A DNA stretch of 64,000 nucleotides from Escherichia virus TH57, in sequence record MT446422.1; one strand, written 5' to 3'. Made by a program: the position numbers and the translations under genes. Shown piece after piece: positions 6,485-56,603 of the stretch (positions within the stretch are counted from its first letter, which is position 1; each line of letters starts with the position of its first letter). The notes beneath the pieces were generated by a model that ran no database searches, was not told the DNA's origin, and saw only the letters and a program-made list of their open reading frames with translations.

Positions 6485-7333
6485 ATGTCACAAGCAATTA
6501 ATGAAATTCGTTCTGAAGTTAAAAAAGTTGTTAAATTCGGGCGTATTCCAAGCACTAAAGATGTGGTTTTAAATGTTCTATATATGATGTGGAATAAGTT
6601 CAATGTTTGTACTAATTCCGCTGAATTCACTAAAATCTTTGAAAAGACCAACGGTCTTCTTACATTAGAAGACCGAGTCATGAAATCTCTTCATCGTTCA
6701 GGTATGTTGTCTCGTGCTAATGCCAAAATTATTCTTAAAAAATATAACAAAGGTTACGACCTTTATGGTCGTGCGATTAGCACCATGACGTTTGATGAAG
6801 TGGTTAAAGACCTTTGGAAAAACCAGCGCCGTTTATTGGCATTAGGTGCTCGTTTAGCAAGCGGTCAAGATAAACAAATGACCTTTAAAACCAATAATTC
6901 TTTAGATTATAAACTATTTAATGTTATTAAAGGTCAAAATGAAGGCGAATACAGTATTTCTTCTTTTAGTGGATGTCAATACGAAAACTGGAAATTCCAC
7001 CTCCGTTTGGCTTTGTCTGAACTCGAATGTCACGGGGTTCTTACCTTTTATGATGTTAAAACTGGAGGCGTCCAGCGTATTAAATTATGTCAAATTAAAG
7101 ACCGAGTTGAAGTCGAGAGCCCCATTGAACAAGCTCCTAAAATGGAACCTGTTCCAGTGCGAAGCAATGAAAAATATTCAGAGCAAATTGAGCTTTTCAC
7201 TAAACAGATTGAAGAGCTCAACATCACCATCCAGCAGCAAGATGATGAAATTTTCCGTCTGTCGGGACTGAACAATGCAGCGAAAGCCGAACGTCAAAAA
7301 CTGATGAACGTTATTGAATTGCTTAAGGATTAA
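6485..7333 (+). CDS. hypothetical protein with C-terminal coiled-coil
   Basis: 282 aa; C-terminal ~45 aa heptad-like (QIEELNITIQQQDDEIFRL...). Confidence 0.55.
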   Translation: MSQAINEIRSEVKKVVKFGRIPSTKDVVLNVLYMMWNKFNVCTNSAEFTKIFEKTNGLLTLEDRVMKSLHRSGMLSRANAKIILKKYNKGYDLYGRAISTMTFDEVVKDLWKNQRRLLALGARLASGQDKQMTFKTNNSLDYKLFNVIKGQNEGEYSISSFSGCQYENWKFHLRLALSELECHGVLTFYDVKTGGVQRIKLCQIKDRVEVESPIEQAPKMEPVPVRSNEKYSEQIELFTKQIEELNITIQQQDDEIFRLSGLNNAAKAERQKLMNVIELLKD

Positions 7334-7334
7334 T

Positions 7335-7550
7335 ATGACCATTTTGATTATCAGTATTATTTTTGGTTATCTTTTGACGGGATTTATTACTACCCTGTTG
7401 CTCCACAAGTTTGATAGTCCCTACGAAAGTGGGGACGAGTATGATGCGGTGTTCACAACATTTTGCTGGCCTATATTCTGGGTAGTCGCTGTTATAATGT
7501 GTGTGACCTGGCCTTTTGCTAAACTCTATGAAAAATTACTTGGAATATGA
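7335..7550 (+). CDS. hypothetical small membrane protein (CWP-motif family)
   Basis: 71 aa from ATG right after upstream stop; two TM segments; CWPIFWVV motif shared with 10288..10455. Confidence 0.5.
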   Translation: MTILIISIIFGYLLTGFITTLLLHKFDSPYESGDEYDAVFTTFCWPIFWVVAVIMCVTWPFAKLYEKLLGI

Positions 7551-7551
7551 T

Positions 7552-8439
7552 ATGAACATTAAAACACGTAAAGAATATTCTCGATTTGAACAGCGTGAAG
7601 GTCGTGCGACTCGTCTTATCGCGATGAATTCTCTGGTTAACTTTGGCAAAATTAAATCAGGTTCTGCCACCCAGGGGTATGGACAACGTATTGTAAGAAT
7701 TAACTCTCTGAATGATTACTGCCGCCGCCCGGCGTTTTTGTTTGGTGCCACAGTTCGTAAGAGCATCAAGGAAATCCTGGCTGCTGGGCTTCGTATTCGT
7801 AAAGCTCCGGTTAACATCAAGAACTATAATTTCAATTCTAGTAACTTGATTATCAATATCAAGAATGATGGTGTGCAGATTAAGTTCAAGCCAACTACTA
7901 AAGGCGATGTTGCCCTTTGTGATACCTTTAAAGAGGTTATGGGTATTGCTCTGTTTTATATGCGTCATGCTGTTGAAGCATACACGTTTGAAGAAGATAC
8001 AAATTATATCCATCAAACAGAAAAATTCCTTAAAACTATAACCATTGATATTAAATTAACTAAAGAATATCTTTTGTCTTATGCTCCTTATCAAGAGAAA
8101 AATGAACCAGAAGAGAAAAAGGAATCAGAAATGGAACGTATCCCTACTGCATCATATGGCCCAGCATTTGCAGGTCAGTATAAAACACAACCTATTTCAC
8201 CACCGGACGTTAAAAATATGTACAAATGGAACGTCCAGCCATCCAGCTCTCTTGGAATCTTTAACCCATCAATGAAACCTATTGAGAGCCATCATGCTGA
8301 TGCTATCCAGGAATCAGTCAACCGCTTAAACGGTCTGATTGAAGATGAGAAAAAGGGTATTCAGGACGTCCTGAATCGCATCAAGAACATGGAAAAACAA
8401 CGCAATAAATTGCAAGCTGCAATCAAAGCATTAAAATAA
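7552..8439 (+). CDS. hypothetical protein with C-terminal coiled-coil
   Basis: 296 aa from in-frame ATG just after upstream stop; C-terminal heptad-like tail. Confidence 0.5.
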   Translation: MNIKTRKEYSRFEQREGRATRLIAMNSLVNFGKIKSGSATQGYGQRIVRINSLNDYCRRPAFLFGATVRKSIKEILAAGLRIRKAPVNIKNYNFNSSNLIINIKNDGVQIKFKPTTKGDVALCDTFKEVMGIALFYMRHAVEAYTFEEDTNYIHQTEKFLKTITIDIKLTKEYLLSYAPYQEKNEPEEKKESEMERIPTASYGPAFAGQYKTQPISPPDVKNMYKWNVQPSSSLGIFNPSMKPIESHHADAIQESVNRLNGLIEDEKKGIQDVLNRIKNMEKQRNKLQAAIKALK

Positions 8440-16687: not shown

Positions 16688-16694
16688 AAACCAA

Positions 16695-16759
16695 CGGGGT
16701 CATGGTATAATGACCCTAGGATAATAAAATTTTAATTTAATGAGACTGAGGAATATATC
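16695..16759 (+). promoter_or_regulatory. early promoter with inverted repeat flanking -10
   Basis: GGGTCAT-GGTATAAT-GACCC. Confidence 0.45.
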
Positions 16760-21133: not shown

Positions 21134-22812
21134 AAACGTTTAAGCTTAAGAAAGTTATCTATAAAAATATTATGTCGGTTGGTGCTCAACCGATTACTGT
21201 TGAACTGGATAAAGTCCAGAAAACTCTTGTAACTGGCAAGAATGGCGCAGGGAAATCTACGTTCCTTGAAGCGGTTACCTTTGCTATGTTCGGTAAGCCT
21301 TTCCGTGATGTAAAGAAAGGTCAGCTGATTAACTCGAGCAACAAAAAAGATATGCTCGTTGAATTGTGGATGGAATATGATGGAAAAGAATACTATATCA
21401 AACGCGGGCAAAAACCCAATGTTTTTGAAATCTCTTGTGGCGGTAAACGTCTTGATGAATCTGCCAGCAGTAAAGACTTCCAAGCGGAATTTGAACAGCT
21501 TATCGGAATGTCATACGCAAGCTTCAAACAAATTGTCGTACTCGGCACAGCTGGATATACCCCTTTTATGGGCCTATCCACTCCTGCCAGAAGAAAGCTT
21601 GTCGAAGACCTTTTAGAGGTTTCTGTACTGGCCGATATGGATAAGCTGAACAAATCTCTTATCCGCGAAGTCAATAGCCAAATCCAGGTGATGGATGTAC
21701 AGCATGACGGTATCGTTCAACAGATTAAAATCTATCAGGACAACGAAGACCGTCAAAGAAAATTGTCAGGCGATAATCTGTTGCGACTGCAAACGATGTA
21801 TGATGAACTTGCCACAGAAGCACGTGGAATCAAGGCAACTATCGAAGAAGCAACGACAAGACTGACCGAGATAATCTTGGGAGAAGACCCTGAGCACGAA
21901 CTCACAAAGTTAAAGCAGGAATCATTCCTGATTAAATCGAAGATTGACGATTATCGAAAGGTTGTTGGTCTGTACGAGAAAGGTGGTTGTTGTCAGACCT
22001 GTGCCAGTCAGTTGCATCCAGGAGACCCTATTGTCGCCAGGATTGAGTCAAAGATTGAAGAATGTAATGCATCGGCTGATAAGCATAAAGCTCGCCAGAA
22101 TGCTGTTCAGGAGCAATTTGATGCGTATACCAAGGCAAGACAAAACCAGCGTACAATAGCTCAAGACATTCAAACTAAGAAACAAACCTTAGTCCAGACT
22201 GTCGAAAAAGCTAAAAAGGTTAAAGCATTAATCGAGCAAGCCAAGTCAGAATTCATTGACCATGCAGCAGACATTAAAATGCTTCAAGACCAGCTTGATA
22301 AAATAGTCAAACAGAAATCTGACCTTGTGATGGAAAAATATCAACGTGGTATCCTAACGGATATGTTGAAAGATTCTGGTATCAAGGGCGCGATTATTAA
22401 GAAATATATTCCTATCTTTAATAAGCAGATAAACGCTTATCTTAAAGTTATGGAAGCTGATTATAGCTTTACGTTAGATGAAGAGTTCAACGAAACGATT
22501 AAATCTCGTGGACGTGAAGACTTTAGCTATGCATCATTTAGCCAGGGTGAAAAAGCTCGTATAGATATTGCATTGCTGTTTACATGGCGCGATATTGCTG
22601 CGAAAGTATCTGGTGTTAATATTAACACATTGATTCTGGATGAAGTTTTTGACTCGGCCACTGATGTAGAGGGTGTTAAAGCAATTGCTACCATCCTGAA
22701 CAAATTGGAAGACACCAACATTTTTATTATCAGTCACCGAGACCATGACCCGGAAGCATACGGGCAACATCTCCAGATGAAAAAAGTTGGTCGATTCACC
22801 GTTATGGAATAA
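21130..22812 (+). CDS. 46: recombination endonuclease subunit gp46 (Rad50/SbcC-like)
   Basis: 560 aa; Walker A GKNGAGKST; CxxC zinc hook; strong match to recalled T4 gp46. Confidence 0.92.
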   Translation: MKTFKLKKVIYKNIMSVGAQPITVELDKVQKTLVTGKNGAGKSTFLEAVTFAMFGKPFRDVKKGQLINSSNKKDMLVELWMEYDGKEYYIKRGQKPNVFEISCGGKRLDESASSKDFQAEFEQLIGMSYASFKQIVVLGTAGYTPFMGLSTPARRKLVEDLLEVSVLADMDKLNKSLIREVNSQIQVMDVQHDGIVQQIKIYQDNEDRQRKLSGDNLLRLQTMYDELATEARGIKATIEEATTRLTEIILGEDPEHELTKLKQESFLIKSKIDDYRKVVGLYEKGGCCQTCASQLHPGDPIVARIESKIEECNASADKHKARQNAVQEQFDAYTKARQNQRTIAQDIQTKKQTLVQTVEKAKKVKALIEQAKSEFIDHAADIKMLQDQLDKIVKQKSDLVMEKYQRGILTDMLKDSGIKGAIIKKYIPIFNKQINAYLKVMEADYSFTLDEEFNETIKSRGREDFSYASFSQGEKARIDIALLFTWRDIAAKVSGVNINTLILDEVFDSATDVEGVKAIATILNKLEDTNIFIISHRDHDPEAYGQHLQMKKVGRFTVME

Positions 22813-22836
22813 TGCTTTAAACAAGGATGTTATAAT
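22811..22836 (+). promoter_or_regulatory. middle-type promoter
   Basis: AATGCTTTAA MotA-box-like element, 12 bp, TATAAT. Confidence 0.5.
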
Positions 22837-22846
22837 AGAGGCTATT

Positions 22847-23038
22847 ATGGCTGACTTCTTAACCGGGCAGCATTTACTGGCTGTCCCTGAAATTAAACGG
22901 TATGTGTTAGTTAATACCTTTTCGAAAGATGAACACCTTGTCACTGAACGTGACTTGCAAAACGCTTTCGGTGAAGAATATGTTAAAATAATCGCGAACA
23001 GACACAATGCCTGGTTCGCATATGAATACTTTGATTAA
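22847..23038 (+). CDS. hypothetical protein (45.2 position)
   Basis: 63 aa from ATG after middle promoter. Confidence 0.4.
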   Translation: MADFLTGQHLLAVPEIKRYVLVNTFSKDEHLVTERDLQNAFGEEYVKIIANRHNAWFAYEYFD

Positions 23039-42393: not shown

Positions 42394-42693
42394 GTGATGT
42401 ACTACGCATATGTGCTGGTCCACAAAGATAAAGATGGTTTTGAACACCCATTGGAGTATGATGGAAAGGTGACCTTATACACCACAAAAGCTGGCGCAGA
42501 TTATGAACTTGCCAACTATTCATATACTACAAACCGCTATTTACGCATGGGACGTATTGAAACACGGTATATTCCCAGGAAGTGGTGGTTTGATAAGCGT
42601 GAAACAAAAACTGTTTTTCCTACTGAAGAACGCGCACGAGAATTGAAATTAGTTTTAGATACTTTATATGTTAAGCGAGTAAAATTGGCATGA
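42394..42693 (+). CDS. hypothetical protein (dda.1 position)
   Basis: 99-aa ORF. Confidence 0.5.
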   Translation: MMYYAYVLVHKDKDGFEHPLEYDGKVTLYTTKAGADYELANYSYTTNRYLRMGRIETRYIPRKWWFDKRETKTVFPTEERARELKLVLDTLYVKRVKLA

Positions 42694-44018
42694 TTAAATT
42701 TGAAGACTTGAACACAGGACAAAAAGAAGCTTTTGATTATATCACTGAAGCTATTCAGCGACGTTCAGGGGAATGTATCACTCTGAATGGCCCAGCTGGC
42801 ACAGGTAAGACCACTCTGACAAAATTTGTCATTGACCACTTAGTGCGTAATGGAGTTATGGGAATTGTGCTCGCTGCACCAACTCACCAGGCGAAAAAAG
42901 TTTTATCTAAATTGTCTGGTCAAACAGCGAATACAATCCATAGTATCCTGAAGATTAACCCGACCACATATGAAGACCAAAACGTTTTTGAACAGCGCGA
43001 AATGCCTGACATGTCAAAATGTAATGTTCTGGTTTGTGATGAAGCAAGTATGTATGACGGGTCTCTGTTTAAGATTATTCTTAACTCTGTTCCCGAATGG
43101 TGTACTATTCTTGGGATTGGTGATATGCACCAGCTGCAGCCAGTTGACCCAGGAAGCACACAACAAAAGATAAGCCCATTCTTTACGCATCCTAAGTTCA
43201 AACAGATTCATCTGACTGAGGTCATGCGAAGTAATGCTCCTATCATTGAAGTGGCGACAGAAATTCGCAATGGTGGTTGGTTCCGTGACTGCATGTATGA
43301 AGGCCATGGCGTGCAAGGTTTCACCTCACAAACCGCTTTAAAGGATTTCATGATAAACTATTTCAGTATTGTAAAAGATGCTGATATGTTGATGGAAAAC
43401 AGGATGTATGCATACACGAATAAATCAGTTGAAAAACTGAACAATATTATTCGTCGCAAGCTATATGAAACGGACAAAGCATTTTTACCGTATGAAGTCC
43501 TGGTTATGCAAGAGCCACACATGAAAGAGCTGGAATTTGAAGGTAAGAAATTCAGCGAAATTATTTTTAACAATGGTCAGTTAGTTCGCATCAAGGATTG
43601 CAAATACACTTCCACCATTCTCCGCTGTAAAGGCGAATCGCACCAGTTAGTGATTAATTACTGGGACCTGGAAGTTGAGTCAATTGATGAAGATGAAGAA
43701 TATCAGGTTGACCGCATTAAAGTTTTACCAGAAGACCAGCAACCAAAATTCCAGGCATATCTGGCGAAAGTTGCTGACACATACAAACAGATGAAAGCCG
43801 CTGGTAAACGTCCAGAGTGGAAAGACTTCTGGAAAGCGCGCAGGACCTTCTTGAAAGTTCGTGCTCTTCCGGTCAGTACAATCCATAAGGCACAGGGCGT
43901 TTCAGTGGACAAAGCATTCATCTATACTCCATGCATCCATATGGCCGAAGCTTCATTAGCGAGCCAGTTGGCTTATGTAGGAATCACACGAGCGAGGTAC
44001 GACGCATATTATGTATAA
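42690..44018 (+). CDS. dda: DNA helicase Dda (SF1B)
   Basis: 442 aa; Walker A GPAGTGKTT; extensive identity to recalled T4 Dda. Confidence 0.93.
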   Translation: MIKFEDLNTGQKEAFDYITEAIQRRSGECITLNGPAGTGKTTLTKFVIDHLVRNGVMGIVLAAPTHQAKKVLSKLSGQTANTIHSILKINPTTYEDQNVFEQREMPDMSKCNVLVCDEASMYDGSLFKIILNSVPEWCTILGIGDMHQLQPVDPGSTQQKISPFFTHPKFKQIHLTEVMRSNAPIIEVATEIRNGGWFRDCMYEGHGVQGFTSQTALKDFMINYFSIVKDADMLMENRMYAYTNKSVEKLNNIIRRKLYETDKAFLPYEVLVMQEPHMKELEFEGKKFSEIIFNNGQLVRIKDCKYTSTILRCKGESHQLVINYWDLEVESIDEDEEYQVDRIKVLPEDQQPKFQAYLAKVADTYKQMKAAGKRPEWKDFWKARRTFLKVRALPVSTIHKAQGVSVDKAFIYTPCIHMAEASLASQLAYVGITRARYDAYYV

Positions 44019-44256
44019 GGTACATAAAGAAGATTTAGATAATCTTATCTATGGTATTCAGGACGCGGTTGAATTTTTCGAAGATAATCCAACTATCGTC
44101 GTGCAGGGTAATTACGTTTTGCTGGAACTGAATCTTATTCGGAAACGTATGGCCGCGATTGAATATTTTAACAATGAAGAGCCAGGGATTTTTATCTCCG
44201 ACTATGTTGCTGGTGAAATTCAGAAATTAAAAGAGATGTGCGATGGTTGCTGGTGA
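44011..44256 (+). CDS. hypothetical protein
   Basis: 81-aa ORF whose last 17 codons run into the 40-bp tandem duplication. Confidence 0.45.
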   Translation: MYKVHKEDLDNLIYGIQDAVEFFEDNPTIVVQGNYVLLELNLIRKRMAAIEYFNNEEPGIFISDYVAGEIQKLKEMCDGCW

Positions 44257-44285
44257 AATTCAAAAATTAAAAGAGATGTGCGATG
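44206..44285 (+). repeat. 40-bp direct tandem duplication (2 copies, 1 mismatch)
   Basis: GTTGCTGGTGAAATTCAGAAATTAAAAGAGATGTGCGATG at 44206-44245 and again at 44246-44285 with G to A at unit position 18. Confidence 0.9.
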
Positions 44286-44966
44286 ATTGATGCTATTATT
44301 GACTTTGAAACTCTAGGAAACGGCTCGAAGGGAGCCGTTATTGACCTGGCTCTGATTACATTCGAATCTGACCCTGCTATTGTGGAATCATTCGAAACTC
44401 TGGTTAATCGCGGCAAACGTATTAAGTTCAGCCTCGAATACCAAAAAGGTAAGCGGTTGTTCGACACAACAACCATGGGTTGGTGGAAAAAACAATCACC
44501 AGAAGCTCGTGTTAACCTGACTCCTTCTGCGCATGATGTTGATACTCTGACCGGTATCCAACAGGCGATTGACTATCTGAATGGCAATGGAATTAACAAA
44601 TACGAAAGCCTTATGTGGTGCCGTGGAATGTCTTTTGACTTCCCGTTGTTTGTCGACCTTATCCGCGACCTACAGCGCAATGAGGGGATTCCTGAGCGTG
44701 AATTGAATACCTACGGTCTGGAGCCGGTTGTATTCTGGAATCAGCGAGATATCAGGACAGCCATCGAAGCCTTATCACTCGTCCGTAAGATGTGTGAAAC
44801 CCCATTACCGAAAGGGACTTTAGATGGATTTGTGGCGCACGATTCGGTACATGACTGCGCGAAAGATATTTTGATGTTGAAGTACGCCCAACGCTATGCT
44901 CTTGGTTTGGATGAAGTTCCTTCCGAAGAAGATGCAGACCCGTTATCTTTACCGAAAAAACGATAA
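44283..44966 (+). CDS. dexA: exonuclease A DexA
   Basis: 227 aa; DFET exonuclease motif; strong match to recalled T4 DexA. Confidence 0.9.
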   Translation: MIDAIIDFETLGNGSKGAVIDLALITFESDPAIVESFETLVNRGKRIKFSLEYQKGKRLFDTTTMGWWKKQSPEARVNLTPSAHDVDTLTGIQQAIDYLNGNGINKYESLMWCRGMSFDFPLFVDLIRDLQRNEGIPERELNTYGLEPVVFWNQRDIRTAIEALSLVRKMCETPLPKGTLDGFVAHDSVHDCAKDILMLKYAQRYALGLDEVPSEEDADPLSLPKKR

Positions 44967-44973
44967 AAAGTAG

Positions 44974-45033
44974 TGTACAAGGCCAATAGAAAGAGACATA
45001 ATCATCTCATCAACTACTGATGAGGATAACAAA
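44974..45033 (+). promoter_or_regulatory. early promoter cassette, CATCAACTACTGA leader type
   Basis: AAAAAGTAGTGTAC, CATAAT, CATCTCATCAACTACTGATGAGGA. Confidence 0.55.
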
Positions 45034-45291
45034 ATGATTACTTCTTTTGAAATTGGCCAACAATATGAAATGTCTGCTCTTCAAGCTGCTGAAGCAGGTC
45101 TGACTAAAGCGTTTGAATGTGCATTTGCAAATATTCGTGGTAAAATCTTTACTGTCAATAAAATTGCGGTATATGATAAAGAAACAGACATGAACAAAGG
45201 CATCTACCTGAACGTGTCAAATGCAAAAGGCCGTCGTGAAATTATGGTTGTACAACCTAATCAACTGGCGATGTTCAATAAGGTTGCATAA
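45034..45291 (+). CDS. hypothetical protein
   Basis: 85-aa ORF after promoter cassette. Confidence 0.5.
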   Translation: MITSFEIGQQYEMSALQAAEAGLTKAFECAFANIRGKIFTVNKIAVYDKETDMNKGIYLNVSNAKGRREIMVVQPNQLAMFNKVA

Positions 45292-46046
45292 TGAAACCAG
45301 AATTTATTGACTTTGATGTTGTAAGCACTTATGTGTGTCCAATTAAACCATTAAAACTTGAGAAACAAAATATGACTATTGAAATTAACAAAACTTATCA
45401 ACTGATTGAACCTATTATTCAAAACGCAGCTATGATTTCTGGGTATAATACTTTGACTGATGCTTTAGGTGAAGGTGAATTTGTTGTTGAAACTTTTGTA
45501 AAAAGTAACTGGTTTGATAAAGCATATATTTTGCATGCCCGTCGTCTGGATACTAATGAAGTGGAAAAAATTATGGTTTATGAAGCTGAGATTGAACTTT
45601 TCAAAGAAGTTGAAGAAACTCCTATCAAAGTTGGTAAAACATATCAGCTTATTGAAGATGGTAGTCAGTTTGATAATGCTATCGCACTGCATGCAGGCTG
45701 GCGTGTGCTGAAAGGTATTTTTGGCTTTGCTCCATTTACCGTTGAAACAGTTAAGTACCACAATCACTTAAATATCTTTGAATTTACTGCAATTAATGAA
45801 TCAGGTGACAATCTTGAAGCTATCCTTTATCCGCGTGAATCTGTACTGTTGGAAGAAGTTAACGAACTGGGTGACCCTATTGACTTGTTATGTAAACCAG
45901 TTCAAATCAAACGCCCATTTAACAGTTCCATTTGTGGTTGGGTAACAGACCAGTGGATTGAAGATGGGGTTGAACTCCTGAACGTCGTCCATGCTGGTGA
46001 ATTTACTGTTGTCCCACGTTCCATGGTTGTTCAAATTTTTAATTAA
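45291..46046 (+). CDS. MotB-like paralog with internal duplication
   Basis: 251 aa; two KTYQLIE-containing segments; C-terminal region similar to the next ORF. Confidence 0.5.
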   Translation: MKPEFIDFDVVSTYVCPIKPLKLEKQNMTIEINKTYQLIEPIIQNAAMISGYNTLTDALGEGEFVVETFVKSNWFDKAYILHARRLDTNEVEKIMVYEAEIELFKEVEETPIKVGKTYQLIEDGSQFDNAIALHAGWRVLKGIFGFAPFTVETVKYHNHLNIFEFTAINESGDNLEAILYPRESVLLEEVNELGDPIDLLCKPVQIKRPFNSSICGWVTDQWIEDGVELLNVVHAGEFTVVPRSMVVQIFN

Positions 46047-46052
46047 GTTTAG

Positions 46053-46123
46053 TGTACAAACTCTTGGGGTCGGAGTATAATGACCCCACTGGAGAATAAA
46101 CTTATTAACCAAGAGAGAAAATT
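46053..46123 (+). promoter_or_regulatory. early promoter cassette with inverted repeat around -10
   Basis: GTGTAC; GGGGTC-GGAGTATAAT-GACCCC; CACTGGAGAATAAA leader. Confidence 0.55.
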
Positions 46124-46615
46124 ATGAAAGTTGAAGCTGGTGATATTGTACGTGTTTCTAAAGAATCTCGTTCCAAAGCTGCTGGTCGTTTTGTTGAGGT
46201 TGTGGGTCTTCGCACTAATTTAGCAGGTGGAATTAAAGAAGTTAAAGTGCGCATCATTCCTAAAAATGGTCAGACTGAAACTCAATTGGCTTATGTGCAT
46301 CCTAAATTCCTGGAATCAACCGAATTTACTGGGTACATCGCTCCTGTGGCCGAAGAAGTTGAAACTATTGACCAGTCTCATGTTGGGGTTGATTTTAAAT
46401 GGAAATTGGGCAAAGGTGTCTTTTTTGTTTCACCTAAACCGTTTGAATATAATTGTCAGTATGGTCCGACTTATGAAACCACTAGCATGTCTGGTTATAT
46501 CACAGACCAATGGGTTGAAGAAGGTGTCAAACTGTATAATATCGTGTTCCTTGGAACCTTTAAGGTTGTTCCTGAGAGCTTTATTGTCGAGTATGCTGAT
46601 ATTCATTTTGCCTAA
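46124..46615 (+). CDS. motB: MotB-like protein (positional)
   Basis: 163 aa; position between dexA and 39; size as T4 MotB. Confidence 0.5.
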   Translation: MKVEAGDIVRVSKESRSKAAGRFVEVVGLRTNLAGGIKEVKVRIIPKNGQTETQLAYVHPKFLESTEFTGYIAPVAEEVETIDQSHVGVDFKWKLGKGVFFVSPKPFEYNCQYGPTYETTSMSGYITDQWVEEGVKLYNIVFLGTFKVVPESFIVEYADIHFA

Positions 46616-46662
46616 ATTATAAAAATGATAGGGTAATTTGCCCTATCAATGAGGAGAATATT

Positions 46663-46887
46663 ATGTTTAATGAAGATTGTGTGACCACTTCCCTGACTGC
46701 TGAAGAGTTTTGGGATACTGCTGAAAGTGATAAAGTGATTGTGAAGAAAAACATCAATGAATTTCTTTGCACCACTGATATCATTTATGTGTATGCAGAC
46801 AAAGACGCAGAACTACCTAGCTATGCGTTGTTCCGTGAAGAATCAGAAGATGGTACAGATTTTTGGAAGGAGATTTATAATGTCTAA
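46663..46887 (+). CDS. hypothetical acidic protein
   Basis: 74-aa ORF with GAGGAGAA SD. Confidence 0.5.
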   Translation: MFNEDCVTTSLTAEEFWDTAESDKVIVKKNINEFLCTTDIIYVYADKDAELPSYALFREESEDGTDFWKEIYNV

Positions 46888-47239
46888 ATTTGAAACTGAT
46901 AAGTGGTATTATTTTAAAGATAATGTTGCTGAAAGCAGATTCCGTTTGTTATGCACAGATAATGATAATATAGCCAATGCTATAATCAATGGCGAGGGAT
47001 TTAGACCAGTCAGAATTGAAGATGGTGATGTGTGTAAAATGGAATTATCAACTGGTGAATTTGTGAGCCTATTCATAAAGGAAGATGAATTCCGTTTCTT
47101 TGAAGAAGAAAAAGATGACGGCGATGAAGAAACTGAAGCTCCAGAAATCACTGCATTCCCATTGACTAAAATCACCATTAGTAATAATGAAGAAGCCTGG
47201 TCAGTTTTCCAGATGTTGAAAGCACACTTTAAGGAATAA
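46880..47239 (+). CDS. hypothetical acidic protein
   Basis: 119 aa from in-frame ATG with GGAAGGAG SD. Confidence 0.5.
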   Translation: MSKFETDKWYYFKDNVAESRFRLLCTDNDNIANAIINGEGFRPVRIEDGDVCKMELSTGEFVSLFIKEDEFRFFEEEKDDGDEETEAPEITAFPLTKITISNNEEAWSVFQMLKAHFKE

Positions 47240-47246
47240 TTTAGAG

Positions 47247-47420
47247 ATGCCACTTTATGATTACAAATGCCAATCTGAAGACTGCGCAAAAGAATACGAA
47301 AAAATCAAGAAAATCTCTGAAAGAGATAATGATGTTTGTCCTGATTGTCATCGGCTGGCTGTTCGGCTAGTCTCGGCCCCCAAACATGTTAATGGTGGGG
47401 TTTACGACCTGCTTAAATGA
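47247..47420 (+). CDS. FmdB-family zinc-ribbon protein
   Basis: 57 aa; MPLYDYKC..C ... CPDC fits the FmdB pattern; not in track. Confidence 0.5.
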   Translation: MPLYDYKCQSEDCAKEYEKIKKISERDNDVCPDCHRLAVRLVSAPKHVNGGVYDLLK

Positions 47421-47426
47421 GGAAAT

Positions 47427-47687
47427 ATGAAATATATTAATCGTTCTATTGCCGCGCTGGTTTTGGCAGTTTCATTGACTGGTTGTACTGATGCAGATAA
47501 TGCTGTTCGCGTATTAGATGCAAACGGCTATGAGCAAATCCAAATCACCGGATATAACTGGTTTGGATGCTCTAAAGATGATTTCCAGCATACTGGTTTT
47601 ACAGCAGTGGGTTCAACTGGTAAGAAAGTTGAAGGAACTGTTTGTTCTGGATTGTTGTTCAAGAATTCAACCATCCGATTTGAATAA
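47427..47687 (+). CDS. hypothetical lipoprotein
   Basis: 86 aa; signal peptide plus lipobox LTGC. Confidence 0.55.
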   Translation: MKYINRSIAALVLAVSLTGCTDADNAVRVLDANGYEQIQITGYNWFGCSKDDFQHTGFTAVGSTGKKVEGTVCSGLLFKNSTIRFE

Positions 47688-47705
47688 GGCCTTCGGGCCT
47701 TTTTG
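47686..47705 (+). terminator. rho-independent terminator
   Basis: AGGCC-TTCG-GGCCT followed by TTTT. Confidence 0.7.
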
Positions 47706-47728
47706 CTTTAAAATATGTGACTTATAAT
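47702..47728 (+). promoter_or_regulatory. middle-type promoter upstream of gene 39
   Basis: TTTGCTTTA MotA-box-like element, 12 bp, TATAAT. Confidence 0.5.
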
Positions 47729-47750
47729 ACCTCCATACACAAGAGGAAAG

Positions 47751-49583
47751 ATGATGATTAATAATGAAATTAAAGTACTCTCGGACGTCGAGCATATCAA
47801 AAAACGTTCCGGGATGTATATTGGTTCCAGTTCAAATGAAGCGCATGAGCGATTCTTGTTTGGTGAATATAAGTCCGTAAGCTATGTTCCTGGTATTGTA
47901 AAACTGATTGATGAAATTATTGATAACTCTGTTGATGAAGCAATTCGCACCAGTTTTAAATTTGCCAATAAAATTGATGTCCAAATTAAAGATAATCAGA
48001 TTTCGGTTTCTGATAATGGCCGTGGTATTCCACAGGCAATGGTTACAGACCAAAACGGTGAACAAATCCCTGGCCCTGTTGCAGCATGGACTATTCCAAA
48101 AGCAGGTGGCAACTTCGGCGATGATGCTGAACGTAAAACTGGCGGGATGAATGGCGTCGGGTCTTCTCTGACCAATATTTTCTCCGTATTGTTCACCGGG
48201 ATTACCGCTGATGGGGCGAACGAAATTACTGTTAACTGCTCCAACGGTATGGAAAACAAATGTTGGTCGACTAAGAAATCAAAGGGTAAAGGTACGACTG
48301 TTATATTTATTCCAGATTTTAGTCACTTTGAAGAAAATAGTCTGTCCCAGATTTATCTGGATATTACATTGGACCGTCTGCAGACTCTTGCTGTTGTTTA
48401 TCCGGATATTCAGTTCACCTTTAATGGTAAAAAGGTTGATGGCAACTTCAAGAAGTTCTCCAAGCAATTCGGAACCGAAGTTGTTATTCAGGAAACTGAT
48501 ACAGTATCGATGGCCTTTACGACCAGCCCAGACGGTTTCCGTCAGTTGACTTATGTCAACAACATTCATACAAAGAATGGCGGACACCACGTTGAATGTG
48601 TTATGGATGATATCTGTGAACACCTTCAGCCGGCGATTAAGCGCAAATATAAAGGCATTGAGGTGACCAAGGCACGAGTTAAAGAATGTCTCACCATGCT
48701 TATGTTCATCCGCGATATGAGCAACATGCGATTTGATTCCCAAACCAAGGAGCGATTGACTTCTCCGGCTGGTGAAATCCGAAATCACATTAAGATTGAT
48801 GCTAAGAAAATCGCGCAAGCTATTCTGAAAAATGAACCGCTGATTATGCCGATTGTTGAAGCTGCATTAGCCCGTAAATTGGCTGCAGAGAAAGCAGCAG
48901 AGACTAAGGCAAATAAGAAAGCTTCAAAGGCCAAGGTACAAAAGCATATCAAGGCCAACGAATGGGGCAATGATAAGTTGGAAACGACTCTATTCCTGAC
49001 CGAAGGGGATTCTGCAACTGGCCCATTTATCAAGGTTCGCGACCGTGAATTGCAGGGTGCTTATCCATTACGGGGCAAGTTTAAAAACACATGGGGCCTG
49101 AAAGCTATTGACGTTATGAAGAACGCTGAAGCCTTTGATGTGTGTGCAATTACTGGATTAACGATTGGACAACCGGCCGAGAATATGAATTACCGAAACA
49201 TTGCTATCATGACAGATGCGGATGTGGATGGTGTCGGTAGTATCTATCCATCGTTATTGGCGTTTTTCAGTAACTGGCCAGAGCTGTTCCATGAAGGACG
49301 AATTCGCTTTGTGAAAACTCCTGTTATTATTGCGCAGCTCAAAGATAAACAAGAATGGTTCTATTCTCTTCCTGACTATGAAGAAGCTAAGGATAAACTT
49401 CCGAAGCACACCATCCGATACATCAAGGGACTTGGTTCTCTGGAAGATGCCGAGTACAAACGCGTATTGCTCGAACCGGTATTCGAAGTTGTTCAATTGC
49501 CTGACAACTGGAAAGAACTGTTTGAAATGTTATTCGGTAAAGATTCCCAGCAGCGCAAAGATTGGATGAATGCGACGCTATAA
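47751..49583 (+). CDS. 39: DNA topoisomerase II large subunit gp39 (ATPase), unsplit
   Basis: 610 aa continuous ORF covering the region that T4 splits into genes 39 and 60. Confidence 0.92.
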   Translation: MMINNEIKVLSDVEHIKKRSGMYIGSSSNEAHERFLFGEYKSVSYVPGIVKLIDEIIDNSVDEAIRTSFKFANKIDVQIKDNQISVSDNGRGIPQAMVTDQNGEQIPGPVAAWTIPKAGGNFGDDAERKTGGMNGVGSSLTNIFSVLFTGITADGANEITVNCSNGMENKCWSTKKSKGKGTTVIFIPDFSHFEENSLSQIYLDITLDRLQTLAVVYPDIQFTFNGKKVDGNFKKFSKQFGTEVVIQETDTVSMAFTTSPDGFRQLTYVNNIHTKNGGHHVECVMDDICEHLQPAIKRKYKGIEVTKARVKECLTMLMFIRDMSNMRFDSQTKERLTSPAGEIRNHIKIDAKKIAQAILKNEPLIMPIVEAALARKLAAEKAAETKANKKASKAKVQKHIKANEWGNDKLETTLFLTEGDSATGPFIKVRDRELQGAYPLRGKFKNTWGLKAIDVMKNAEAFDVCAITGLTIGQPAENMNYRNIAIMTDADVDGVGSIYPSLLAFFSNWPELFHEGRIRFVKTPVIIAQLKDKQEWFYSLPDYEEAKDKLPKHTIRYIKGLGSLEDAEYKRVLLEPVFEVVQLPDNWKELFEMLFGKDSQQRKDWMNATL

Positions 49584-56188: not shown

Positions 56189-56530
56189 ATGTCTAAATTA
56201 TTTTTTGGTAATGCCAATGTTATGTTCTTTAAGAACCTTAGTCTCCAAGATGCAGCTTTATGTAATCAAGGGCAGATTCCAGGGTTACATTTAAAAACTG
56301 TAATGAGCACAGATTTTGTTTTTGTTCAAGACCCTGATACAGGTTTTTACAGATTTATTAAATTCCGTATGTGCATGGACCCCGACTATCGCAATGCTTA
56401 CTATGTAAGTTATGAAAATGTTATTAAAGAATTACGTAATACCTATGGATATGCTTTGATAAACCTGAATAAGGTGTATAACGCTACTTGTTACACCCCC
56501 GAATTTATTTTAGAACAACTTCAAAAATAG
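56189..56530 (+). CDS. hypothetical protein
   Basis: 113-aa ORF with GAGGAAA SD. Confidence 0.5.
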   Translation: MSKLFFGNANVMFFKNLSLQDAALCNQGQIPGLHLKTVMSTDFVFVQDPDTGFYRFIKFRMCMDPDYRNAYYVSYENVIKELRNTYGYALINLNKVYNATCYTPEFILEQLQK

Positions 56531-56603
56531 TGTACAAACTCATGGGGTCAGAGTATAATGACCCCACTGGAGCACAAAACTTTAACTTACTGAGGAAATT
56601 AAT
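56530..56603 (+). promoter_or_regulatory. early promoter cassette with inverted repeat around -10
   Basis: GTGTAC; GGGGTCA-GAGTATAAT-GACCCC; CACTGGAGCACAAAAC leader. Confidence 0.55.

Follow-up and report, generated by a model that had tools for sequence, protein, structure and literature searches.

The adjoining early genes motB.1 and motB of T4-like phages raise the question of what their products have in common, how the larger of the two was assembled, and which of their parts contacts DNA. The stretch studied here, 64,000 nucleotides of sequence record MT446422.1 from the T4-like phage Escherichia virus TH57 (the window), carries two adjacent open reading frames (ORFs) of 251 and 163 residues (45291 to 46046 and 46124 to 46615). 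A first-pass annotation described them as a MotB-like paralog pair with an internal duplication in the upstream member. Both ORFs exist as described, and by sequence they represent motB.1 and motB, two early genes of a Gaprivervirus phage. Taken as a whole, it is probable that the two proteins share a C-terminal domain, that MotB.1 carries two tandem barrels of old divergence, that MotB would bind DNA through a KOW barrel with MotB.1 acting as an adaptor, and that transcription would involve coupling to an upstream ORF for motB.1 and a promoter-stem-loop (PeSL) cassette for motB.

T4 MotB is an abundant early protein with tight, nonspecific DNA binding; it copurifies with H-NS and StpA on DNA and alters H-NS footprints, and its overexpression derepresses H-NS-controlled genes (PMC7827196). 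Son et al. (2021) described the MotB.1 gene upstream of motB, with a shared C-terminal domain and different N-terminal regions (categories 2 and 4), and proposed a duplication for the pair (PMC7827196). Kim et al. (2025) united the N-terminal domains of T4 MotB.1, GoF, and Frd.2 in one family of five-stranded "LSm-like" or SH3-like barrels, and AlphaFold 3 gave no confident multimers for T4 MotB.1 (PMC12152347). Neither Son et al. (2021) nor Kim et al. (2025) mentions MotB.1 homologues whose barrel is duplicated or in tandem. MotB.1 with two barrels is a modest variant, not described before, within a known family. Its impact is limited. The gene pair and the common domain have been published before, and GenBank contains near-identical genes. 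For work on T4 early proteins, it presents MotB.1 as a modular protein that takes a two-barrel form in Gaprivervirus.

The identity of the 163-residue protein, suggested by the first-pass annotation from its position, is borne out by a domain search: residues 1 to 162 align with positions 1 to 161 of the 162 positions of the Pfam profile PF17613, with 175.9 bits against a cutoff of 25. The protein is 100% identical to MotB of ECML-359, and its gene lies between motB.1 and cef in the early region from dexA to gp39. The 251-residue protein is encoded directly upstream of motB, its last ∼40 residues show a partial match to PF17613 (35.8 bits against the curated cutoff of 25), and its orthologue in SP18 carries the annotation motB.1. 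The ∼1.8-kb region around both genes shows 92 to 97% DNA identity to the Gaprivervirus genomes ECML-359, SP18, and VR26, and the gene order dexA-motB.1-motB-cef-goF is that of T4 and SP18. T4 MotB (Patterson-West 2018, Son 2021) has 53% full-length identity with the MotB described here and shares the layout of a KOW barrel plus C-terminal domain as well as the neighbors motB.1 and cef; the two differ by sequence divergence only, with a net charge of -3 here and +6 in T4.

The C-terminal region common to both proteins is recovered by BLASTP, which aligns residues 211 to 248 of MotB.1 with residues 119 to 156 of MotB (19/38 identical, 29/38 positive, E = 3e-12). Comparison of the family profiles with hhalign extends the match to all 57 C-terminal residues of MotB.1 against residues 103 to 159 of MotB (probability, 100%; E = 3e-38). 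The similarity on which the first-pass annotation had staked its pairing is significant, and on these alignments motB and motB.1 are paralogous in their C-terminal domain. In both families, conservation is highest in this domain, with the invariant run CGWVTDQW.ED.ELLNVVH.G in the MotB.1 family alignment. MotB is comprised of a basic KOW barrel (residues 1 to 66), a disordered acidic linker (residues 67 to 87), and a C-terminal β-domain (residues 88 to 163). In the AlphaFold 2 (AF2) model of MotB, the KOW-like barrel spans residues 8 to 64 with strands at 8 to 11, 23 to 31, 37 to 44, and 54 to 58, residues 67 to 84 of the linker are disordered, and the C-terminal strands lie at 98 to 110, 116 to 132, 135 to 142, 145 to 150, and 154 to 157, the last four of which form the common segment. 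The C-terminal domain of the MotB.1 model shows strands at 203 to 206, 214 to 224, 227 to 234, 237 to 242, and 246 to 248. The KOW barrel of MotB gave no hhalign signal with either the common C-terminal domain or the barrels of MotB.1 (probability, ≤1.5%).

Ahead of this domain, MotB.1 holds two homologous units of ∼84 residues that are 32 to 36% identical. The motifs quoted in the first-pass annotation are found at residues 30 to 40 (IEINKTYQLIE) and 112 to 124 (IKVGKTYQLIEDG), and the repetition extends well beyond them. Self-alignment of residues 24 to 110 with residues 106 to 195 gives 34.8% identity over 89 columns (E = 2.6e-7); the Smith-Waterman score of the repeats is 65 compared to 25.9 ± 4.5 for shuffled sequences, with 65 reached by 0/2,000 shuffles. 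The families of repeat 1 and repeat 2 match each other as profiles over 80 columns (probability, 97%; E = 1.1e-10), and a barrel hidden Markov model (HMM) finds two full-length domains, at residues 28 to 109 (E = 3e-35) and 110 to 192 (E = 2e-27). Structure prediction agrees with this division. The AF2 model, built on a 30-sequence alignment, shows the same order of elements in both units with an offset of 82 to 86 residues: barrel A (repeat 1) has strands at 35 to 38, 63 to 71, 78 to 85, 91 to 97, and 104 to 106 with a helix at 46 to 59, and barrel A′ (repeat 2) has strands at 117 to 120, 149 to 157, 162 to 169, 174 to 179, and 187 to 190 with a helix at 131 to 144. The DNA copies of the KTYQLIE motif in the two repeats show 3 synonymous differences over 21 nucleotides; because of these differences, the preservation of the motif at the protein level is attributed to conservation under selection and not to recent gene conversion.

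Barrel profile comparisons agree with the family of Kim et al. (2025) (PMC12152347). The repeat 2 family matches the N terminus of T4 MotB.1 (E = 3.6e-5) and that of GoF (probability, 76%; E = 2.3e-5) in hhalign, and residues 28 to 111 of MotB.1 match phrog_622 weakly (E = 0.0039). By profile comparison, the N-terminal domain of goF, which lies 0.8 kb downstream, belongs to the barrel superfamily of the MotB.1 repeats, as does that of Frd.2; both proteins differ from MotB.1 in having unrelated C-terminal domains and a single barrel each. Multibarrel Tudor and KOW proteins, such as 53BP1 with its tandem Tudor domains or the KOW arrays of Spt5, show a resemblance in fold only, with 5 to 21% identity and no sequence relationship. 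T4 MotB.1 (P39415; categories 2 and 4 of Son 2021) shares the gene position, the C-terminal domain, and the barrel superfamily. Its barrel is single and of the B type, the N-terminal motif is absent, and the C-terminal domain is truncated in the reference (119 residues); the 251-residue protein, by comparison, has the A and A′ barrels, the motif, and an intact C-terminal domain. With two barrels in place of the single N-terminal barrel of the GoF/MotB.1/Frd.2 type found in T4, the protein is regarded as a variant architecture of the phrog_2333 family because the family profile still matches it from end to end.

The N-terminal motif of MotB.1 (residues 1 to 27) contains D7, D9, and P20, which are invariant in 30/30 sequences, and its predicted local distance difference test (pLDDT) score is below 50. 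That this motif packs against the C-terminal domain to complete a split domain was considered and is unsupported, with residues 1 to 27 left disordered by AF2. The motif consensus [IV][IVF]DxD[VI]x[SH]xYxxP accompanies the C-terminal domain of the MotB.1 type; depending on the phage, there are 0, 1, or 2 barrels between the two, or a short helical segment. The motif stands directly before the C-terminal domain, after a KOW or B-type barrel, in L014, L016, and P0246 to P0253; it is parted from the domain by one barrel in the 180-residue forms and by two in the 251-residue form.

A survey of 22 loci and 240 homologues, with a profile search of 1.84 billion representatives, shows the range of these architectures. 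The T4 type consists of a B-type barrel and the C-terminal domain (144 residues if intact), and a second form inserts the motif between them (164 to 167 residues). The commonest form, of ∼180 residues, has an N-terminal tail, the motif, an A-type barrel, and the C-terminal domain; an 82-residue extension ahead of it gives a form of ∼249 residues. The metagenomic homologue P0095 (165 residues) combines the motif, an A′ barrel, and the C-terminal domain, and other forms (126 to 199 residues) join a KOW barrel, the motif, and a MotB.1-type C-terminal domain. The form in the window has the motif, the A and A′ barrels, and the C-terminal domain, and its alignment with the 180-residue form shows a single clean insertion of 85 columns, which is repeat 2. 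The MotB/MotB.1 family as a whole is narrow, with only 22 clusters at 50% identity; all inspected clusters are of the MotB or MotB.1 type, and among these the profile search showed no relatives outside T4-like phages. Only one of these clusters (P0007) shows two barrel matches. By tblastn, repeat 2 is found in 33 of 738 phage records with MotB.1, at 79 to 89% identity, and the named isolates among them (VR7, VR20, VR25, VR26, SP18, and RZ) are Gaprivervirus.

The distribution of charge bears on the question of which part contacts DNA. The C-terminal domain of MotB.1 has a net charge of -3, the aligned common segment of MotB has one of -5, and the mean over 235 homologues of the domain is about -4. 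MotB.1 as a whole reaches -18 with an isoelectric point (pI) of 4.6. The sole basic part of the pair is the N-terminal KOW barrel of MotB (net charge, +5; pI 10), which is not shared. On the basis of this distribution, DNA binding is placed in the KOW barrel rather than in the common C-terminal domain, and the claim of the first-pass annotation that the shared module is a DNA-binding one finds no support. With moderate to low confidence, the KOW barrel would thus bind DNA, the C-terminal domain would serve protein contacts, and MotB.1 would be an acidic adaptor. MotB would bind DNA via its one basic KOW-type barrel and remodel H-NS-DNA complexes, an activity known from experiments with T4 MotB. 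The acidic C-terminal domain would be a protein-contact module for self-association, for association of MotB with MotB.1, or for a common partner. MotB.1, with two acidic barrels of the GoF/MotB.1/Frd.2 type between its N-terminal motif and its C-terminal domain, would probably be an adaptor that does not bind DNA and displays two barrels for ligand binding. The charge distribution thereby points to which MotB domain to test.

The alternative that the C-terminal domain is itself the DNA-binding module, duplicated and diverged so that MotB and MotB.1 both bind DNA, is unlikely but has a real chance of being correct. It draws on the tight DNA binding of T4 MotB and on an HHpred link between the C-terminal domain and the cold-shock-type OB fold (PMC7827196), on the rank of the domain as the most conserved part of both families, and on its conserved aromatic residues. 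Several points weigh against placing DNA binding in the KOW barrel and against the wider reading of the locus. The C-terminal domain of T4 MotB is near neutral (+1), the charge argument is indirect, and stacking of the conserved aromatics (GW/Y..DQW) on nucleic acid is conceivable; an OB fold was predicted for the domain by Son et al. (2021), who left its DNA binding open (PMC7827196). Deletion of T4 motB.1 has no phenotype, the gene being dispensable (Kim et al. 2025, PMC12152347). The AF2 models of MotB.1 and MotB are only of moderate quality (pLDDT, 75 and 78; predicted template modeling score, 0.41 and 0.46), the fold searches used whole multidomain models so that matches are not assignable to single domains, and the promoter given below for motB is a consensus match only. 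An elaboration of the adaptor proposal is conceivable but quite doubtful: MotB.1 might pair with MotB through the C-terminal domain or compete for its partner, with the barrels as swappable heads on a common anchor, so that MotB.1 would modulate MotB, bound to DNA and perturbing H-NS, or redirect it; in Gaprivervirus, a second ligand would come with the second barrel.

The age of the two barrels was judged from a barrel identity matrix and a neighbor-joining tree. Repeat 1 shares 55 to 66% identity with most of the A-type barrels from other genera, contained in MotB.1 forms of 171 to 247 residues, and 38% with the most divergent of them, P0242; in the tree, it nests within the A-type clade of the other genera. 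This placement makes barrel A orthologous to the one barrel of the 180-residue MotB.1 proteins. Repeat 2 is 54% identical to the barrel of P0095, and these two are sister to all A-type barrels. Apart from its place as the second copy in Gaprivervirus, barrel A′ occurs only in P0095, where it stands alone. The identity of repeat 1 with repeat 2 is 32%, and that of repeat 2 with foreign A barrels is 26 to 31%. From the tree and these identities, the split between A and A′ is older than that among the A barrels of the various genera, and the second barrel is therefore not a recent tandem duplication within the gene. Of the duplication and divergence proposed by the first-pass annotation, the paralogy of the C-terminal domains stands, as already published (PMC7827196), and a recent origin of repeat 2 within the gene does not. 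It is very unlikely that repeat 1 was duplicated recently in the Gaprivervirus gene and that the copy then diverged very fast. The restriction of the two-barrel form to Gaprivervirus among isolated phages, the exact boundaries of the units, and the faster nonsynonymous change of repeat 2 described below would fit it, but repeat 2 is no nearer to its own repeat 1 than to foreign barrels, its single-copy relative P0095 comes from a T4-like contig that is distinct, with a MotB of only 59% identity, and synonymous sites have diverged in the common KTYQLIE motif. The two-barrel gene would go back either to an ancient duplication with loss elsewhere or to recombination between diverged alleles.

Ratios of nonsynonymous to synonymous substitution rates (dN/dS) from five Gaprivervirus orthologues are below 1 in every domain of MotB.1. 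They amount to 0.04 to 0.14 for repeat 1, with 0.26 for one near-identical pair, 0.07 to 0.13 for the C-terminal domain, and 0.18 to 0.52 for repeat 2, in which nonsynonymous change is 3 to 5 times faster than in repeat 1. Both barrels are maintained by purifying selection, the second under looser or more diversifying constraint. The higher ratios of repeat 2 and a variable patch at residues 122 to 133 could also suggest that this copy is redundant and decaying and serves no separate function; this, too, has a low probability, as the ratios still lie below 1, all 33 records with repeat 2 cover at least 80% of it with no stop codon or frameshift, and AF2 folds barrel A′ with a pLDDT of 70 to 85. 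That the similarities reflect chance or composition, for which nothing speaks except the shortness of the BLAST match, is already refuted by the C-terminal domain (E = 3e-12 and E = 3e-38) and the repeats (E = 1e-10 and 0/2,000 shuffles) and has a virtually negligible probability.

The first-pass annotation gave each gene its own promoter cassette, which holds for motB and fails for motB.1. The predicted early promoter of motB, identified by its match to the consensus, lies in a stem-loop cassette of the PeSL type, with the -10 box within the loop of an 8-bp GGGGTC/GACCCC stem (-18.2 kcal/mol; z = -2.4). The 45-nucleotide cassette recurs at 56528 to 56572 with 43/45 nucleotides matching (0 expected by chance), and a looser third copy is found at ∼16690 to 16725 (near 16706). 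The repeated sequence of promoter plus stem-loop reads TAGTGTACAAACTC.TGGGGTC.GAGTATAATGACCCCACTGGAG. T4 and L014 show an orthologous cassette before motB with GGGACC/GGTCCC stems, which represent compensatory changes. PeSL cassettes have been described for T4-type phages (PMC4122927) as repeated units of an early-type promoter with a stem-loop that adjoin genes differing from phage to phage (Arbiol 2010, Comeau 2014). The motB cassette likewise shows an early sigma-70-type promoter overlapping a stem-loop and near-identical dispersed copies; it differs in its -35 box, TGTACA in place of TTGACA or TTTACW, and in the presence of only 2 to 3 copies in the window. Shuffling of flanking genes by such cassettes would fit the wide differences in MotB.1 architecture between phages, a circumstantial argument.

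The start codon of motB.1 overlaps the TAA stop codon of an 85-residue ORF (ATAATG at 45288 to 45293), and the two genes are probably cotranscribed and translationally coupled. A sigma-70-like site upstream of the 85-residue ORF is the sole candidate promoter for this pair; a 7-bp stem-loop at ∼45006 to 45024 folds no better than shuffled sequences (z = -0.6). The combined barrel HMM aligns the 85-residue ORF from end to end (E = 7.7e-4; orthologues, E = 4.5e-5 to 9e-3), and pairwise and small-profile comparisons with the barrels are negative (z < 3; hhalign probability, <6%). The ORF is possibly a single barrel of the MotB.1/GoF superfamily. The 82-residue extension of the 249-residue MotB.1 gave no match with the barrels in the same comparisons (z < 3; hhalign probability, <6%) or with the barrel HMM. 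The 85-residue ORF occupies the place of T4 motB.2, and its C terminus, LAMFNKVA, resembles the end of that extension, MAAFIRLA, a likeness that hints at gene fission or fusion.

Features of the motB.1/motB region, with coordinates on the window and all genes on the plus strand
Feature	Coordinates	Strand	Details
dda	42690-44018	+	followed by an 81-aa ORF
dexA	44283-44966	+	
Sigma-70-like promoter-like site	44974-45002	+	TGTACA-17-CATAAT, 9/12; upstream of the 85-aa ORF
85-aa ORF	45034-45291	+	phrog_17795, E 3.5e-59
motB.1	45291-46046	+	251 aa; phrog_2333, E 1.7e-79
N-terminal motif, aa 1-27	45291-45371	+	conserved (E)FIDFDVVSTYVCPIKPL; predicted disordered
Barrel A (repeat 1), aa 28-110	45372-45620	+	b1-helix-b2-b3-b4-turn-b5
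Barrel A′ (repeat 2), aa 111-194	45621-45872	+	topology as barrel A; absent from 180-aa homologues
MotB.1 C-terminal domain, aa 195-251	45873-46043	+	five strands, acidic, net charge -3
PeSL-type cassette before motB	46050-46094	+	TGTACA-17-TATAAT, consensus scan 10/12; predicted promoter at 46053-46081
motB	46124-46615	+	163 aa; PF17613, E 7.5e-52
MotB part of common segment, aa 103-159	46430-46600	+	
Stem-loop between motB and cef	46626-46648	.	10 bp, -13.5 kcal/mol, z -3.3
cef	46663-46887	+	T4_Cef match
goF	46880-47239	+	119 aa; phrog_622, E 2e-30
39.2, 39.1, gp39	downstream of goF	+	

The stem-loop between motB and cef scored as terminator-like on the minus strand only. Antisense and alternative-frame ORFs within motB.1 and motB show no PHROG match, and no Rfam-type RNA family was found in positions 43500 to 48000, where the single match has an E value of 0.62.

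The T4 reference gene motB.1 (NC_000866.4, L002, record positions 7291 to 7650) ends early, at 119 residues, through one extra G (ATTGGAAGATGG compared to ATTGAAGATGG), and the next frame contains the other 29 codons, EDGVELLNVVHAGEYSVVPRSAVVAILN, in intact form. The T4 assembly OZ035787.1 (L023) has no extra G and encodes a MotB.1 of 144 residues with the full conserved C-terminal domain (compare P0244). Published work on T4 MotB.1 used the 13.8-kDa form (Kim et al. 2025, PMC12152347). The missing 29 residues of the conserved domain in the reference protein may bear on the reported lack of phenotype or activity.

Further rearrangements of the MotB and MotB.1 modules are seen in L019 to L021 (126 residues), L016, L017, and P0254. 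Some phages have a single gene combining a KOW barrel with a MotB.1-type C-terminal domain and no separate motB, others have three consecutive MotB-like genes, and one ORF of 43 residues is a fusion of the beginning of motB.2 with the tail of the C-terminal domain. The metagenomic T4-like contig encoding the MotB.1 with a single A′ barrel has, at the position of goF, a gene (L022, 1880 to 2599) for a protein of 239 residues; this protein has the C-terminal tail of GoF, and its long N-terminal region goes unrecognized by the barrel HMM. Elsewhere in the window, an 83-residue ORF at 22787 to 23038 shows a weak partial match to the barrel HMM (E = 0.004, residues 37 to 82) and may be a distant member of the barrel group or a chance match.

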